IMG/VR virus record: IMGVR_UViG_2565956720_000009
From: a virus
Lineage: Duplodnaviria > Heunggongvirae > Uroviricota > Caudoviricetes
Direction: 5' to 3' (one strand)
DNA: 37,373 bases
A program made the position numbers and the translations under genes. Below, one piece after another: positions 1 to 9,725 of the stretch. How positions within the stretch are numbered: the first letter of the stretch is position 1; each line of letters opens with the position of its first letter. Below the pieces are notes generated by a model. That model was not told the origin of the DNA. It saw only the letters and a list, made by a program, of their open reading frames with translations, and made no database searches.

Positions 1-23
1 ACACCAACGGGCAGCGCCGAGCC

Positions 24-49
24 TTCTCCTAAACCAACGTTTTAGTCTT
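24..49. other. putative cix-type crossover site for Cin (Hin/Gin/Cin 26-bp site family)
   Basis: TTCTCCTAAACC-AA-CGTTTTAGTCTT lies about 55 bp upstream of the invertase start; the left half fits the recalled TTnTCnnAAACC half-site, the right half is degenerate. Position fits a site bounding an invertible segment to the left of the window. Confidence 0.4.
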
Positions 50-103
50 AATCCCTACCTATACCAACGATGTATTTTTAACTAAACAAAGAGGTTGTTT
101 TTC

Positions 104-676
104 ATGCAAATTGGCTACATTCGTGTGTCAACAAATGACCAAAACACAGATTTACAAAGAAATGCACTGAACTGCGCAGGATGTGAACTGATTTTTGAAG
201 ATAAAATAAGCGGAACAAAGTCAGCCAGACCAGGCTTGAAAAAGCTGCTCAGAACGTTATCAGAAGGAGATACGCTGGTTGTCTGGAAGCTGGATAGGCT
301 TGGCAGAAGTATGAAACACCTTATCACGCTTATAGAGGAGTTGCGGGAAAAAGGTGTTAATTTCCGTAGTCTGACAGACAGTATTGACACATCAACACCC
401 ATGGGGCGTTTCTTTTTTCATGTCATGGGTGCTTTAGCAGAAATGGAACGTGAATTAATTGTTGAGAGAACACTGGCCGGACTGGCAGCTGCACGCGAAC
501 AGGGACGCATTGGCGGACGTCGCCCGAAGTTGACAAAAGAACAACATGAGCAAATAGCGAGGTTGATCGAAAATGGCTACAGCAGGAAACAGTTGGCAAT
601 TATTTACGATATCGGTGTATCGACGATTTATCGTTATCATCCTGTAGAGAAGCGCCAAACTCAATCTGAGCTGTAA
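104..676 (+). CDS. cin: serine DNA invertase, Cin/Gin/Hin/Pin family
   Basis: Translation MQIGYIRVSTNDQNTDLQRNAL...GRRPKLT has the resolvase/invertase N-terminal catalytic Ser motif and a C-terminal HTH; near-identical to recalled P1 Cin. The first ATG is at 104 (the track ORF starts at an upstream TTG at 95); AAAGAGG RBS lies about 10 nt upstream. Confidence 0.93.
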   Translation: MQIGYIRVSTNDQNTDLQRNALNCAGCELIFEDKISGTKSARPGLKKLLRTLSEGDTLVVWKLDRLGRSMKHLITLIEELREKGVNFRSLTDSIDTSTPMGRFFFHVMGALAEMERELIVERTLAGLAAAREQGRIGGRRPKLTKEQHEQIARLIENGYSRKQLAIIYDIGVSTIYRYHPVEKRQTQSEL

Positions 677-2809: not shown

Positions 2810-4729
2810 ATGGAACAGTTCAATATCAATAAAGGGGTGACGATCAAGCCTGGGCTTGACGTGCTTCCCCCGCCAGTGACTGATGATGAATATCGCGCAT
2901 TAATGGCCGGTGAGGACCGCTATCTGATGACGGAATCCAACACCCTGGAGGAAATCGAGGCTACGTTCTTCTATGACACGCCGATCCACTGGTGTGCTAC
3001 GGATTTACTGGAGGCGATTAGTTCTACTCGTTTGCAGTTACACCGGACCATGCAGGCATTTGTCCGGGCATTGAACCAGAAGCTGAATGGTACCGGAATC
3101 TCTGCGGGGAGTGATAAAACGGGGGAGGTGGCCCAGAGCGGCGCGCGCGCGATCGGCGGTGCTGAAATTGGCCGGGCACGTAACGTTAACGGGCTGCCGG
3201 TCCTGCCAGCCATTATTCCGCTCAGTGATGGTCAGACTATCAGCATTCTGTTTCATAGCCCGACAGCGGAAAACCGGATCACCAATAGCGATACGCTGGT
3301 TGCTTTCCAGTTCTTACTGAATAAAAAAGACGTTACTCACACCGTTGCTCCGATGAGTGGACGTGATATGACGCTGGCGCAGGTCACCATGAAACTTGCC
3401 AACCTTGCAGAGAAAAACTCGGCAAAATTCCAGCGTGCGCAGAAGAAGAAAAAAGCCCTGGTTGATGAAATAACCCAACTACAGGCTGACAGTGACCAGA
3501 AAGAGGATGCCATGAGCGACCTCGCGGATCAGGTGGCAGCGGTAGAAGGGCAGAAGGTAGATCTGGAGCAGAAAATTAACGCTGTTGCATCGGAAGCGGA
3601 TTCTCTTTATGAAGAGAATGAGCGTTTGCAGACGGAGATTGATCAGCTCAATCGCACAGGTGGGCGCGATACCATTGATCCAGCGGGGATGACTGGTGGG
3701 CACTCGCGCGCGCTGACGGATCGCCTTGCCAGTATCAAAAATCGTATGCATATGAACGGGGAAGTGACGCTCAGTAATGGAGCATCAATGAAGCAATTCA
3801 TTGGGGGCGGCGAAGGGTATATCCAGTTAACCGATCCGGATGGCAGCGTATACATGATCAAGGCTAAATCCATACAGGGTGTGGACATGGCAGATGCGAT
3901 CGGCAAGCTGTTTAAAGCCTATAAAGCGGGTAATGTATCGGAATACCTGGTCCAACCAGAAGAACATAAACCGGAAAACGTCGAACCTGAACCAGCGGAG
4001 GATACCGGTAGCTCTTCGCCTGAACCAGAAGTCTCTGTAGGTGCATATCGATATGCCCTGCAAATGCGTCCGGCGGCCCCTGGCGCAATACCTGAAGGTA
4101 ACAAAGCAATTCTGCCGCGCCCTGATGAAGGTGACCCGTATTATGAATATGCACGCTACGGCATTGCTACTTACGATACCCCGCTTTCTGATCAGCAAAT
4201 GAGTGAGTACGACCTGAAGTTATTGCCTCGCGAGGATTCTTTCGACTTCCTGGCGAAGACACTTACTAATGGTCCGTTTGGCAAATATGCACAAAAAGCT
4301 CTGGAGCTGGCCACCAGCTCACCAGACGAGTTCCGCGTAATGCTGAAAACTCAGTTTCAAAAAACTTTCCCCAATATTGCGTTTCCTGGGGGCGCTGGCA
4401 CCGAGAAAATGGTGCAGAGCATGATCAATGCATTGCAGGCCGAAGTCGGTGAGATTACTCAGCCAGAACCGGCCCCGGCACAGCCTGATGAAACGGTTAG
4501 CGAAGCAGATGCAGAGGCTAATAAAGCCATTGAATATCTCAATAACGTGATGGATATACAAAGCACTGACATGGCGGAGATCCGTAACGCCCGGGGCAAT
4601 GTCCGGGAAGCGATTGCAGCCCTTCAGGCTGCCGGACGTTTTGAGGAAAACGAAGAGCTGGTTAACGGCGCAGCTCGCCACCTGGCTGATCTGTTGGTAG
4701 CAATCCAGAAAGCGGGGGTAGCGGCATGA
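2810..4729 (+). CDS. darA: DarA-like internal head protein (defence against restriction)
   Basis: 639-aa ORF, the length recalled for P1 DarA; starts 2 nt after the hdf stop and has an ATGA overlap with the next gene; sits in the hdf-darA-ddrA-ddrB synteny block. Confidence 0.7.
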   Translation: MEQFNINKGVTIKPGLDVLPPPVTDDEYRALMAGEDRYLMTESNTLEEIEATFFYDTPIHWCATDLLEAISSTRLQLHRTMQAFVRALNQKLNGTGISAGSDKTGEVAQSGARAIGGAEIGRARNVNGLPVLPAIIPLSDGQTISILFHSPTAENRITNSDTLVAFQFLLNKKDVTHTVAPMSGRDMTLAQVTMKLANLAEKNSAKFQRAQKKKKALVDEITQLQADSDQKEDAMSDLADQVAAVEGQKVDLEQKINAVASEADSLYEENERLQTEIDQLNRTGGRDTIDPAGMTGGHSRALTDRLASIKNRMHMNGEVTLSNGASMKQFIGGGEGYIQLTDPDGSVYMIKAKSIQGVDMADAIGKLFKAYKAGNVSEYLVQPEEHKPENVEPEPAEDTGSSSPEPEVSVGAYRYALQMRPAAPGAIPEGNKAILPRPDEGDPYYEYARYGIATYDTPLSDQQMSEYDLKLLPREDSFDFLAKTLTNGPFGKYAQKALELATSSPDEFRVMLKTQFQKTFPNIAFPGGAGTEKMVQSMINALQAEVGEITQPEPAPAQPDETVSEADAEANKAIEYLNNVMDIQSTDMAEIRNARGNVREAIAALQAAGRFEENEELVNGAARHLADLLVAIQKAGVAA

Positions 4730-5091
4730 CACTATCAGCTATTGAGTTAATGGATCTCAGCGATAAGTTGGATGCTCTGATGTCCAAAGCGGCTACCGCG
4801 AGTGGCATGGAGTTGCTGGATATCAGCGATGAAATTGACCAGATCATGCAACAGATGGGGTACGGTGTGTCCGGCGGCAGTAGTGGCGAGGAAAAACAAC
4901 CTTCGGTACATGATGGTGTGCCAAAACTGGTTGCTGATTTCCTGGCTGATAAATTCGTCGATCAGAGCACCGATGCATTTATCGGTACGTTGCAGGACTT
5001 GAGTCAATATGTTGGCACATACATCGATCTGGACCAGGTTAAACAGCACACGGCGGCATGGATAGCCGCCAACATTAAAGAGGCAGAGTAA
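4726..5091 (+). CDS. ddrA: DdrA-like protein (dar operon)
   Basis: 121-aa ORF coupled to darA by an ATGA overlap; synteny with the P1 dar operon. Confidence 0.55.
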   Translation: MTLSAIELMDLSDKLDALMSKAATASGMELLDISDEIDQIMQQMGYGVSGGSSGEEKQPSVHDGVPKLVADFLADKFVDQSTDAFIGTLQDLSQYVGTYIDLDQVKQHTAAWIAANIKEAE

Positions 5092-5103
5092 GGCGTAACA
5101 GGG

Positions 5104-8091
5104 ATGAGCTTAAGCGATCAGGTGGTAATGGCCACCAGCATAGAAACGCTGATCGAGCTGCTAAAAAACCTGCCCAATTACGGGCGGGTTTCGTATGTGG
5201 TGACAGCGAAGGGAGACGAGGTAAAAACAGCGTTTGATATCGTCGATGCCTCAGCTCTTTTGGTATCCAATACTCTGGACGGGAAAATTAACCCTGACTA
5301 TCCCCAGGAACTTCAGCCGCGCGACCGGACCCGCGCATCCAGTCTTCTTCAGGTCAACCAGATATCCAAGGATTTGCGTCCTGCCCAGCTTACCGATTCC
5401 GGTTTATCCAGCCATGGCGCGCCGATAATTGGTGAGGACAATGCCGTTGAGTCAGGTAATGGACGGACCATGGGGATCATCAAAGCCTATCAGGACGGCA
5501 ATGCGGATCGGTATCGTGAGTACCTGATTGATCATGCGACCGAATTCGGCATACGACCTGAAAAGGTTGAATCAATGGCGGCTCCGGTACTGGTGCGCCG
5601 CCGGTTAACTAAGGTTGACCGCGTTCAGTTTGCCAAGGACTCAAATATTTCTGATCTTCAGGAAATGGCAGCCAGTGAAAAGGCTTTTGTTGATGCTGAC
5701 AGCATAACTCCGGCGATGATGGCGCTGTTTAACCCATCAGAAAGCGGAGATCTGCTTAGCCGCAGTAATGACGCGTTTATTCGCGGATTCATGACGCAAG
5801 TTGGTGCCACACAGGCTGCTGGCCTTGTAACGGAAGATGGGCGACCAACACGGCAACTTGTAGACCGTATACAAAACGCGATCTTTGCCAAGGCATATAA
5901 GGATGCGCGCCTGGTAAGGATGGTTGCAGAAGAACCTGATCCGGATATGCGTAATGTTCTGACGGCGCTTAATGCGGCAGCCAATGATTTTGTCCAGATG
6001 CAGGCTTTATCAGGAGAAGCGCACAAGCAGGCTGTGACAACTATTGTTGATGGCATTGAGACAGCGGATAGCCTCGATAAAAAGGCGCTGGCGGCATTGA
6101 AAGATGCGGTAGACCTGGTAAGGCAATCGAAGGAGTCAGGCCAGCATATTACCGATGTTATTGCTCAGGGGGATATGTTCAGCGAAACGGCCCCGGAAGT
6201 GAAAGCACTCGCGTTGTTCATCGTCGCGAATAACCGTAGCGCGAAGCGTATGGCCACCGCCTTTAAGTTGATGGCTCAACGTATCAATGATGAGTTACAG
6301 CACCAGGGCCAGGCGCTGGGGGATATGTTTGGCGGCGGCGATGTGTCGTTACAGGATATCCTTCGCCAGGTGTCTCAGGAACTGGAAAACGAAGGCATGC
6401 AAGGGATATCCGGCGGTCTTTTCGAGTCCGTTTCCGGCGGTAGTTACAACGGTGTTGCTCCGTATACCAGTTTGCTATTACATCGGGCATCCGGCATCAA
6501 AGACATTATTCATCTGATCAGGCTGCTTTCCCGCACAGATCCCCAGGATGAACAGCTTGTACAAGTGCTTGCGCATTTTGTTCGAATGCCTGTTGCCGAC
6601 GTGAAAAAATGGTGCCGATTATTCGGTATCAGCAATTCGTTACTTCGCGGCTTGTTAAATCACGCATCCTCCCTTGGGCGCGATGGCTTTGACGAGATAG
6701 CGCAGGCGATAAAAAACGGAGATATGCCACCAGCTATTGACTGGTTTTCCATTCGCCCAACCAGGGTGAAAGCATTCCTTAGCGCGGCGCATTCGGCATC
6801 ACCATTGGCAGAAATGGTTCAGAGGTTGTCGCTCATATTCACAGACCATACCGCGTTGGGTGATCTGACTCTGGACGAGATGAAAGAAGCCTCCATTCAG
6901 TGGGCCGATCAACAAAATGAGGTTAACTCTGACTTCTTGCCAGCATTCAGGAAGGCCGTTAGTAAAGCTGATGATGCCCGTGGAATTCTGAAGGCATTTA
7001 AGGCATTGCAAAGTCAGGTTAATAAACATGTCGGTGATATCGATGGGGTAACGGCGGAAGGCAGGGATATCCTTAAAGAGCACGGCATAACGCCAGAGTT
7101 TATTGATGAGATCAGGACGGATATGCAGCGTGAGGTCGTATCGTCCCTGCAAATCGTAGCCAGAGCGTTGGCGGATGCTAATCCGAAGAGTGCGGCCATT
7201 GTTAACCGTGTTATTGGTGATATTGAAGCATCGGAGGGCATGGGGGCGCTGAAACTCTTCCTTTCGCGAGCGTTTAATCCTAACGGCAATATTCTCCCCG
7301 ACATTATTGGTGAGGCTAAAAAGTATGTCAGCGAAGAAGAACTTGAGCATCTTGACCAACTACTTAAGCGATTCTCATATAACCCGCAGACACGCTGGCA
7401 AATGAATCAGCGAAGTATGGGTTCGGTCCACGAGAAAGTGTTATCTGCCATGAATAGTGCGATAGCCAACTCATCCGTATCTGAAGAAAAAGCTCTTGAG
7501 TGGGCCGACTCTTTTATCACGGAAGAAGTGGAAGAAGCCCGCGCTGGACAGAGTGGTGGGATAGACCTGCGCAAGGAACTTGCTGATATTTATCGCCTGA
7601 CCGGCGGGAAAATATCGACCTTATCAAAGGTGGTTCACCACCAGGGAAGGGCATATGCAAATCTTAATGGTGTTGTTGCTGTCAATTTGAACGATGAAAA
7701 TGCAAGTGCACTGTGGCACGAGCTGGGTCATCATCTTGAGTACAGTAACCCTGGTTTGTTAGAGAAAGCCCGGTCATTCCTGAAGGCCAATGTTGAAGGG
7801 GATAAGCCATCTTTCGTTAATATCGGTGGGCGTGGCAAGCCTGAATGGTGCTTCAGATCTCGATTGAGTAATATTTATATGGCGAAGGTATACCCGCCAG
7901 CCTCAGTAAGTAACACCGGGAAAATTCGGCAGAAATCACCGACTATTTCCAAAACGTCAGCAACGGAAGTATTCTCTATGGCTCTTCAGTTGTATCATGA
8001 CAAAGAGGCCGCTGCCGCATCACTGATGAATGGTGACGGATTGCTGGAACTGTTATTAGGTGTGGCAAAGGAGCTAAATAATGCAGATTAA
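5104..8091 (+). CDS. ddrB: DdrB-like large internal head protein (dar operon)
   Basis: 995-aa ORF following ddrA; size and position match recalled P1 DdrB. Confidence 0.6.
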   Translation: MSLSDQVVMATSIETLIELLKNLPNYGRVSYVVTAKGDEVKTAFDIVDASALLVSNTLDGKINPDYPQELQPRDRTRASSLLQVNQISKDLRPAQLTDSGLSSHGAPIIGEDNAVESGNGRTMGIIKAYQDGNADRYREYLIDHATEFGIRPEKVESMAAPVLVRRRLTKVDRVQFAKDSNISDLQEMAASEKAFVDADSITPAMMALFNPSESGDLLSRSNDAFIRGFMTQVGATQAAGLVTEDGRPTRQLVDRIQNAIFAKAYKDARLVRMVAEEPDPDMRNVLTALNAAANDFVQMQALSGEAHKQAVTTIVDGIETADSLDKKALAALKDAVDLVRQSKESGQHITDVIAQGDMFSETAPEVKALALFIVANNRSAKRMATAFKLMAQRINDELQHQGQALGDMFGGGDVSLQDILRQVSQELENEGMQGISGGLFESVSGGSYNGVAPYTSLLLHRASGIKDIIHLIRLLSRTDPQDEQLVQVLAHFVRMPVADVKKWCRLFGISNSLLRGLLNHASSLGRDGFDEIAQAIKNGDMPPAIDWFSIRPTRVKAFLSAAHSASPLAEMVQRLSLIFTDHTALGDLTLDEMKEASIQWADQQNEVNSDFLPAFRKAVSKADDARGILKAFKALQSQVNKHVGDIDGVTAEGRDILKEHGITPEFIDEIRTDMQREVVSSLQIVARALADANPKSAAIVNRVIGDIEASEGMGALKLFLSRAFNPNGNILPDIIGEAKKYVSEEELEHLDQLLKRFSYNPQTRWQMNQRSMGSVHEKVLSAMNSAIANSSVSEEKALEWADSFITEEVEEARAGQSGGIDLRKELADIYRLTGGKISTLSKVVHHQGRAYANLNGVVAVNLNDENASALWHELGHHLEYSNPGLLEKARSFLKANVEGDKPSFVNIGGRGKPEWCFRSRLSNIYMAKVYPPASVSNTGKIRQKSPTISKTSATEVFSMALQLYHDKEAAAASLMNGDGLLELLLGVAKELNNAD

Positions 8092-8389
8092 AATCGCAGC
8101 GCCATTAGGCGGAGATGCCATTATCGAATTTGATGATAATGAAGAAGTTTCCGGGCGTTTAAGCATTATCTCCGGTGACATTACCGAGGACATGATCGCT
8201 GAAGCCATAGCTGGGGCAAATCCCAATAGCTATATGGGATTCGTTAACACCCTTGATGCTCCCGCAAGTGATGTTCTCCGAACGCTGCATCTTTACGCTG
8301 GCTGGTTTGTTGATTGGCCAGCAGTAGATGGTGGCGATGAGGACGACGACGATGATTTTGGTGATCATGCAGACCAGATCGTATATTGA
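8081..8389 (+). CDS. small acidic protein, last gene of the dar operon
   Basis: 102-aa ORF overlapping the ddrB end by 11 nt; poly-Asp C-terminal tail (DGGDEDDDDDFGD); followed by a strong terminator. Confidence 0.45.
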   Translation: MQIKIAAPLGGDAIIEFDDNEEVSGRLSIISGDITEDMIAEAIAGANPNSYMGFVNTLDAPASDVLRTLHLYAGWFVDWPAVDGGDEDDDDDFGDHADQIVY

Positions 8390-8391
8390 AG

Positions 8392-8424
8392 AAATCCCGC
8401 CAATCGGCGGGATTTGTTGTTTAT
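8392..8424. terminator. bidirectional rho-independent terminator between convergent genes
   Basis: Perfect 10-bp stem AAATCCCGCC/GGCGGGATTT with a 4-nt loop followed by GTTGTTTAT; lies between the stop of the dar operon and the stop of the HipA-like gene. Confidence 0.7.
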
Positions 8425-9725
8425 GCCAGGCGGGCTATGCGTATCTTACAATCATCTAGGTGGATGCGTAGCGCTTCTAAACATGGAGTAAAGTTAGCTG
8501 AGAATTTGTCGGACTCACAGGCCAATGCATAAAATTTTTCAGCCAATTCAAGAGATTCATCCCATATTTTTCGACTTACAAAGTCTGGTAGTGCTGTTTT
8601 TCTAAGCTCATTAGATATTGCTCCCCCAGAGCGTGGAGCAAAACCCATAGGTAACATGTCATAGGCTGGAGCAATATGATATGGGCGTCCGTGGCTACTA
8701 ATAAACGATAGGTTACCATTATGCATATCGGTATTGCCTATTAGCAAACCAAAAGACCATAGCCTTGTTGCTATAATAATCGCATCAGGATGGACGCACT
8801 TATTTTTTACCAACTCTTTAACCAGCAAGGGCCATGTTGCTCTTGCATTCCCAACAAATTCTGCATCAAGTGCACGAAGTGAGAATACACCTACCCGACC
8901 TAGTTGACCAACACGATCAAATCGGGGAATTTCCAAGAATCTCTGACCGTTATAATCAAAAACTTCTGTTTCTACCCCCAGAACTTTTAATGCGAGATGT
9001 TCAGCAAACAAGAGATCTCTCCAACGCTCACTTATAGGGGTGTCGTTAGGCGCAGAGAATTTCACTAATACATGTCCACGCTCTGTGAAAGTACAAAATT
9101 TGGGTTGTTCACCTCCAGCAGATGAACCGGGCACATCACCTTCACCAGCAGCTAAAGCTAATACAGGATATTCACTTTCACGATTAACAGGAACAGGAGG
9201 CTGCATCTCTAAAAAATGCGTGCGTGCTTGCTCTCCAATTAACAAATTACCAACAACATCATGCCCATGCTTAAGTAAGGCTTTGATCACGTCAGTATCT
9301 GACCATTGCTCTGGATTTGAGGGAAGGTTAAGTTCAAGAGCATATGCTGATGCATATGCTCTTCCAAGGAAGCCTTGTGGACGCATATCAAATAACCACC
9401 AAGGTAACCCATCGCTATGCCTGTTATTTTTCCCTTCCTCAACCATAACATAGCCTTCTGGCCTCACCGGAATGAGAGTACCAAGAACGCAAATACACCC
9501 CTCTTCAGTTATACGATAAATGGGGACTGATTCGAATCCTCTAAAAGAGTCTCGTAAAGCATATTGAATAGATCTTCCATTTCCGATCCTAACGATTTCA
9601 TCACCAAGATCTCTTAATGCTCTAGATATCGTTGGTTGGCTAACACTTAGTCTTTCAACCAATTGTCTTGGTGTCATAGGACCTTGATTGAGCAAATTAC
9701 GGATTGTTGTTGCATGTATAGCCAT
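8421..9725 (-). CDS. HipA-family Ser/Thr kinase toxin with N-terminal HTH domain (YjjJ/HipH-like)
   Basis: 435 aa from the ATG at 9725 (MAIHATTIRNLL...). N-terminal HTH (MTPRQLVERLSVSQPTISRALRDL); P-loop-like SAGGEQPKF; catalytic-loop-like LIGNTDMHNGNLSF; APAYDMLP motif. AT-rich relative to flanking phage genes. Confidence 0.85.
   Translation of the reverse strand: MAIHATTIRNLLNQGPMTPRQLVERLSVSQPTISRALRDLGDEIVRIGNGRSIQYALRDSFRGFESVPIYRITEEGCICVLGTLIPVRPEGYVMVEEGKNNRHSDGLPWWLFDMRPQGFLGRAYASAYALELNLPSNPEQWSDTDVIKALLKHGHDVVGNLLIGEQARTHFLEMQPPVPVNRESEYPVLALAAGEGDVPGSSAGGEQPKFCTFTERGHVLVKFSAPNDTPISERWRDLLFAEHLALKVLGVETEVFDYNGQRFLEIPRFDRVGQLGRVGVFSLRALDAEFVGNARATWPLLVKELVKNKCVHPDAIIIATRLWSFGLLIGNTDMHNGNLSFISSHGRPYHIAPAYDMLPMGFAPRSGGAISNELRKTALPDFVSRKIWDESLELAEKFYALACESDKFSANFTPCLEALRIHLDDCKIRIARLA

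Follow-up and report, generated by a model that had tools for sequence, protein, structure and literature searches.

The stretch of DNA analysed here (the window) comprises 37,373 nucleotides of IMG/VR virus record IMGVR_UViG_2565956720_000009, assigned to the Caudoviricetes, and its first letters read acACCAACGggcagcgccgagccttctcctaaACCAACGttttagtcttaatccctacctatACCAACGatg. At this end the window carries the edge of a tail-fibre coding segment, a recombination site, a short leader and the gene of a serine DNA invertase, min (Table 1). The Min protein matches the Pfam Resolvase (PF00239, E = 2e-51) and HTH_7 (PF02796, E = 3e-15) domains, is 74% identical to Cin of phage P1 at the amino-acid level, and recurs without a single substitution on at least 1000 contigs, where it is named DNA-invertase (UniRef Q05517_ECOLX). 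Positions 1–1200 of the window are 99.8% identical to more than 100 IncY P1-like phage-plasmids from E. coli, Salmonella and Klebsiella; their identity to a Punavirus phage is 98.7%. Within this part, likeness to P1 itself is found only from about position 808 onward.

Table 1 Features assigned at the left end of the window (window coordinates)
Feature	Position	Strand	Remarks
5' end of invertible tail-fibre variable segment	1–36	-	Inner flank of crossover site; contains copy 1
min-proximal mix crossover site	24–49	+	26 bp, TTCTCCTAAACC AA CGTTTTAGTCTT; contains copy 2 (33–39)
Leader, probable promoter region of invertase gene	50–103	+	54 nt; contains copy 3
Copy 3, ACCAACG	63–69	+	Lineage-specific resemblance to site core; no evidence of function
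-10-like TATTTT (weak)	73–78	+	Leader sequence
Shine-Dalgarno GAGG	91–94	+	Leader sequence
min, serine DNA invertase	104–676	+	ATG at 104; 190 aa plus stop
Recombinational enhancer (sis) homolog	122–193	+	Inside 5' end of min

The first-pass annotation of this DNA had drawn attention to three copies of ACCAACG spaced 30 bp apart, the middle one forming the core of what was called a cix-like site. Comparison with cix, gix and hix sites places the 26-bp imperfect dyad at 24–49 within the Din family: it scores 12/15 on the Din consensus TTCNNNNAAACN-NA-NGTTTNNNNGAA, where published hix, gix, cix, pix and mix sites reach 12–14/15 (site table of PMC3241671). Copy 2 is composed of the end of the inner half-site (ACC), the presumed exchange dinucleotide (AA) and the start of the outer half-site (CG). 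The outer half (positions 38–49, CGTTTTAGTCTT) is identical to that of the published p15B site mixMI''L', which reads TTCCCCCAAACC AA CGTTTTAGTCTT (PMC3241671). A genuine Din-family crossover site therefore lies beside the invertase gene, as had been supposed, but to judge from its sequence it is a mix site and not a cix site, namely the invertase-proximal mix site of a p15B-type Min multiple-inversion system. For annotation this means that 24–49 should be labelled the min-proximal mix site and the gene min rather than cin. Strand exchange is inferred, by analogy with related invertases, to take place at the AA at 36–37; similarity between cassettes breaks at this AA core, which is comparative evidence for exchange there. 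Elsewhere in the window, Din-like 26-mers were also encountered at 4623, 7777, 17664 and 32935 (11–12/15); they have no invertase-site context and were regarded as chance matches.

The window begins 23 nt left of the crossover site and any partner sites lie outside it. The upstream context was therefore read from pLAO48 (L001, NZ_OP242270.1), a 99.8%-identical plasmid in which window positions correspond to plasmid positions minus 9000. The first-pass annotation had expected a partner site and an invertible tail-fibre segment upstream, and the near-identical plasmids indeed have seven further sites and an invertible tail-fibre region directly upstream. pLAO48 carries seven exact copies of AAACCAACGTTT, four on one strand and three on the other, the last being the site of the window, along with an Sc-linked ACCAAGG variant whose outer half, GGTAATCAAG, corresponds to the published mixQ''R' (PMC3241671). 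At the position of copy 2 only the outer half of this Sc-linked site differs. Relative to the site of the window, four internal sites and the Sc-linked site are inverted and two are direct. Each site is accompanied on its inner side by a 230–280-bp repeat, and in six segments, those whose ORF is intact and 100 aa or longer, a frame of about 150 aa ends in ...RPRNIAFNYIVRAA; the segment at 5072–5530 of pLAO48 was assigned to the Pfam Collar domain (E = 3e-15). The invertible region has a tail-fibre assembly gene in its middle, and min reads away from that region. Loci with identical leader and invertase gene carry at least six different inner flanks, which indicates that inversion has occurred and that copy 1, lying on the inner flank, changes with the inversion state. 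These comparisons place the start of the window within the multiple-inversion module for tail fibres of a P1-like (IncY, p15B-type) phage-plasmid.

Several further observations concern this region and related contigs. The interval 4545–9042 of pLAO48 holds eight crossover sites and eight alternative Collar-domain segments, against six mix sites listed for p15B. The Sc-linked site of NZ_OP242270.1 has GGG where GGGG is found elsewhere, which leaves the S gene frameshifted, either through a sequencing error or because it is a pseudogene. Many genome contigs (L016, L020, L021, L023, L025, L027, L031, L038 and others) end 60–130 nt upstream of the invertase ATG, at or just past the crossover site, much like the start of the window, probably owing to assembly breakage at a repeated and invertible region.

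The 5' end of min contains a block related to the recombinational enhancer. Positions 122–193 match the enhancer annotated within P1 cin (NC_005856, 31678–31749) at 58 of 72 positions (81%), compared with 66% for the rest of the gene, and conservation of its DNA sequence was seen across five invertase genes. A scan of 101–214 returned two Fis-like G-N13-C 15-mers, at 125–139 and 174–188, about 49 bp apart. The ACCAACG copies had been considered as possible Fis sites; the Fis-binding enhancer of this system, however, is predicted from its homology to lie elsewhere, at about 122–193. The distance from the site core (36–37) to the proximal Fis-like site is about 95 bp, and the equivalent segment between hixL and the enhancer of the Hin system forms a loop of about 100 bp assisted by HU (PMC3798978).

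The distance between site and gene appears quantised across about 110 distinct Din-invertase cassettes (L003–L170; 36 to 104 in the window). Measured from core to ATG, it amounts to 57 nt in 2 cassettes, 65–67 nt in 81, 75–78 nt in 19 and 87–88 nt in 2, with eight window-type alleles at 65–67 nt counted apart from the 81 as the site pattern mis-scored them. The steps correspond to approximately one helical turn, even where the leaders share no sequence similarity, and the pattern is consistent with a helical-phase constraint that links the site to the intragenic enhancer. In phage vB_EcoM-673R5 (L002, 9100–9671), the invertase is annotated as two CDSs, 'Hin2' and 'Hin1', implying a frameshift. 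A P88-type cassette on the conjugative IncI-gamma plasmid pNDM5_LS003 (L007, NZ_OP290546.1, 2960–3660) adjoins an R64-type Rci shufflon; it comprises about 40 bp of tail-fibre inner flank plus the crossover site, overlaps a CDS annotated as shufflon protein A, and looks like a transplanted Din cassette. Cassettes of enterobacterial type also occur on short contigs assigned to Moraxella osloensis (L012, 1268 bp) and to a Chitinophaga MAG (L054, 2350 bp), where the taxon assignment probably reflects contamination or mis-binning.

Sequence inspection and a motif search confirmed the three copies of ACCAACG on the plus strand at 3–9, 33–39 and 63–69, each preceded by A-N. The motif as such is unremarkable in abundance, with six copies in the 37-kb window against 4.3 expected, but its arrangement is unusual: ACCAACG is the sole 7-mer in the window that forms an equally spaced triple (spacings of 8–60 considered; here exactly 30/30), and any such triple appeared in only 1.7% of 300 windows simulated under a first-order Markov model. 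The earlier remark that the outer copies lack flanking half-sites also held, as the 26-mers around copies 1 and 3 each score 6/15 on the Din consensus, a value reached or exceeded by 15% of all 26-mers in the window.

Copy 1 can be accounted for by protein coding. The minus strand of positions 1–41 translates to NVGLGEGSALPVG (N-V-G-L-G-E-G-S-A-L-P-V-G), and in pLAO48 this frame runs for 146 codons before reaching a stop. The Collar domain opens with the conserved tail-collar motif LPVGVPVPWP, whose Pro-Val-Gly is encoded by copy 1, while the crossover site itself encodes x-Val-Gly (C GTT GGT) on the same strand. The same GTT GGT codons recur in LPVGVPVPWP ten codons after the site, and the 30-nt spacing is consequently an in-frame one. 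At the place of copy 1, other segments read ACCAACA, GCCAACG or GCCAACA and other elements read CCCAACC or ACCTACG, all of which are third-codon changes within Pro-Val-Gly-Val. Variation restricted to wobble positions points to constraint on the protein and not on a DNA-binding motif; conservation of copy 1 as a DNA motif independent of its coding was looked for among these segments and elements and was not found, in line with its low Din score. Periodic short motifs beside invertase sites can thus stem from in-frame tail-fibre coding, here of Val-Gly pairs ten codons apart.

Copy 3 lies on the opposite, fixed side of the exchange point, in the leader of min, and its resemblance to the crossover site extends beyond the heptamer. 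The corresponding 26-mer (54–79, CCTACCTATACC AA CGATGTATTTTT) shares 17 of 26 positions with the true site, and only 4 of about 74,700 other positions of the window reach as many; outside the 7-mer, 10 of 19 positions match (P about 0.009). One reading of this resemblance treats 54–79 as a weak pseudo-site for Min, its centre 30 bp from that of the true site, which would bind a Min subunit or dimer and which could serve in repression of the min promoter (autoregulation), in modulation of synapsis or as a rare quasi-crossover site. The two 26-mers share the central AA and CCTAnACCAACG, copy 3 is located just upstream of the -10-like TATTTT, and quasi-sites are documented for Cin in the works listed as references 50 and 51 in PMC4134206. 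However, the outer TTC/GAA positions, 0 of 6 of which are matched, are absent from both halves, and a Din score of this size is common in the window. Copy 3 is moreover in direct orientation, and the 30 bp that separate it from the true site are too few for looping.

For comparison of leaders, the DNA upstream of each invertase gene was collected from 160 related loci in GTDB genomes and IMG/VR. Among the five leader alleles of the Min class, copy 3 reads ACCAACG in one (that of the window), ACCAACT in three and ACCAGCT in one. The share of variable positions, 2 of 7 in copy 3 vs 14 of 66 in the whole leader, gives no sign of extra constraint on the copy, although these alleles are close relatives and their shared similarity is not independent evidence either way. 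In the sister alleles the substituted bases are the G of the CG step and, within the AA core, the second A, with no sign of constraint. At an offset of +30 the self-similarity amounts to 17/26 in the allele of the window and 14–15 in its sisters, so that all Min-class alleles keep 14–17/26, compared with 5–6 in other classes. The P88-class leader is homologous to that of the window (39 of 66 positions, or 59%, identical in an ungapped alignment; 0 of 2000 shuffles aligned as well), but reads ATTATCT at the place of copy 3; its self-similarity at +30 is 11, not above that at neighbouring offsets, and no +30 peak was seen outside the Min class. The pGMI14, pSJ_98/P2-like, Fels-2 and Enterobacter leader classes hold nothing similar to copy 3.

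Use of copy 3 as a crossover site would leave recombinant junctions. Searches of IMG/VR for AAACCAACGATGTATTTTT and CCTATACCAACGTTTT returned 2 and 37 hits, all in unrelated contexts and, by our estimate, roughly as many as chance alone would yield in a collection of this size. In PLSDB, the deletion-product junction found no contiguous match at 100% identity, only two-piece matches to the normal arrangement, and the inversion-product junction query likewise gave tied two-piece matches to the normal arrangement. The motif is also lacking in the homologous leader of the P88 class and in every other leader class compared. We consider a Min-binding pseudo-site at copy 3 unlikely. Its narrower form, in which 54–79 would act in the p15B-type Min lineage only, damping min transcription or relocating the min promoter region by occasional quasi-crossover, is quite improbable.

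Alternatively, the repeats could stem from a tandem duplication of 30 bp in the crossover-site region, followed by divergence. The spacing is exact, and units 31–60 and 61–90 share 16 of their first 21 positions, but their similarity stops abruptly after these 21 nt. Unit 1–30 is tail-fibre coding sequence and hence bears no other relation to unit 31–60. The leader is furthermore of standard length, within the 65–67-nt class that comprises 81 distinct cassettes and the eight window-type alleles, and its ungapped alignment with the P88-class leader leaves no place for a 30-bp insertion. On the strength of that alignment and the standard leader length, a duplication origin was rejected, and we regard it as extremely unlikely.

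A further possibility is that copy 3 belongs to the min promoter or to a binding site through which Fis, HU or IHF shapes the short loop between crossover site and enhancer, its likeness to the site core being incidental. Copy 3 does lie within the segment of about 95 bp between the site core and the proximal Fis-like site, whose Hin equivalent is looped with the help of HU (PMC3798978); Min alleles hardly vary in the block CCTACCTATACCA and in TGTATTTTT, and in other leader classes a conserved TGGCAT(C/G)AT follows a few bases after the position of copy 3. A scan of positions 1–1200 for sigma-70 consensus promoters found none, however, and inspection by eye revealed no Fis G-N13-C 15-mer over 63–69. 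The bases that make copy 3 core-like are precisely those that vary, and such a role, even if true, would not make the three copies a functional array. We judge it very improbable.

Other properties of the leader were noted on the way. TATACC (60–65) and TATTTT (73–78) are weak guesses at promoter elements. Folding of the leader gave no RNA structure, the sequence being less stable than its shuffles (z = +1.4). In most leader classes outside the Min class (L013–L170), TGGCAT(C/G)AT is located at about -36 to -28 from the invertase ATG and resembles an extended -10 element (TGn + CATCAT); the Min class has TGTATTTTT 2–3 nt downstream instead. This block may be a common invertase promoter. A/T tracts recognized by eye recur every ~10–11 bp at 75–110 of the window (T5 at 75–79, AAA at 84–86 and 88–90, T5 at 98–102, AAA at 108–110) and could confer intrinsic curvature that aids a short loop from site to enhancer.

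Overall, we consider it likely that the three copies have three causes, namely the core of the mix site, tail-fibre coding sequence and a non-conserved piece of the leader, and do not form one device. The resemblance of copy 3 to the site, which together with the exact spacing is more than expected a priori, is attributed to chance in a C/T- and A/T-rich leader, noticed post hoc. The proposal of an array of quasi-sites or accessory invertase sites finds no support in either outer copy, as copy 1 is coding sequence on the mobile side of the site and copy 3 is non-conserved with a score of 6/15. Phased promoter architecture is likewise not supported, with copy 1 varying at wobble positions of a tail-fibre frame and copy 3 missing from the homologous P88 leader. 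The finding matters little beyond correct annotation, although loose site patterns may mis-call the leader copy as a crossover site. Should copy 3 bind Min, this would add a little to the picture of invertase autoregulation but would not amount to a new kind of system.

By homology with Hin, Gin and Cin, the switch would operate from the crossover site around the middle copy. A Min dimer is expected to bind the mix site at 24–49, and the bound site would pair with an inverted mix site upstream. The Min-bound sites would assemble on the enhancer inside the 5' end of min (about 122–193), which, when bound by Fis, is predicted to activate strand exchange. Strands would then be exchanged at the central AA (36–37), and the resulting inversion would fuse a different C-terminal segment to the constant part of the tail fibre.

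Among known systems, the res sites of Tn3 and gamma-delta are the model behind the accessory-site reading, with accessory dimer-binding subsites II and III beside crossover site I. To our knowledge, this is the only serine-recombinase architecture with extra recombinase-binding sites tens of bp from the crossover site. The present locus differs from it in that copies 1 and 3 lack the half-site determinants (6/15), that copy 1 moves off on inversion, and that the system has a predicted Fis enhancer, the hallmark of the invertases. We know of no report that Hin/hix, Gin/gix or Pin/pix need flanking copies of the core sequence, and no such need was found here either. Likeness to Hin, Gin and Pin is seen in the pair of Fis-like sites about 49 bp apart, and likeness to Hin also in the distance from site to enhancer (about 95 bp here vs about 100 bp from hixL); Hin differs in controlling a promoter and not a gene fusion. 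In the Pin system, pixR shares the ACC AA CG centre (PMC3241671).

P1 Cin belongs to the same recombinase subfamily (74% amino-acid identity), and Cin/cix shares with the present system the 26-bp site plan with its AA core, an enhancer, here a predicted one, within the 5' end of the gene (81% identical) and the role in switching the C-terminus of the tail fibre. P1 has only two sites and one invertible segment, however, and its cin is oriented toward that segment with its 3' end overlapping cixL, whereas the site of the window is located 54 nt upstream of the start codon of the invertase gene. The outer half-sites also differ (GGTTTAGGATTG in P1 vs CGTTTTAGTCTT here).

The closest counterpart is the Min multiple DNA inversion system of p15B, composed of the min gene and mix sites (Iida 1990 and Sandmeier 1990/1991, as cited in the literature), with which the locus was compared through the published table of mix sites (PMC3241671). 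Also on record is a P1-like plasmid whose invertase shares 98.5% identity with p15B Min (PMC6906374). The inner half of the site in the window contains TTCTCC where the listed p15B sites have TTCCCC, a natural variant that is also present in L111 and L115, and the number of sites differs (eight in the near-identical pLAO48 vs six listed for p15B). The two systems agree in the outer half CGTTTTAGTCTT and, within pLAO48, in the internal outer halves CGTTTTTATGCC and CGTTTTTATGTG and the Sc-linked half GGTAATCAAGAA, as well as in a P1-like IncY host plasmid on which overlapping invertible tail-fibre segments form a cluster and the invertase reads away from it. The array of three ACCAACG copies is probably not a functional unit, and the switch at this locus is the Min/mix switch already known from p15B, described in 1990–91.
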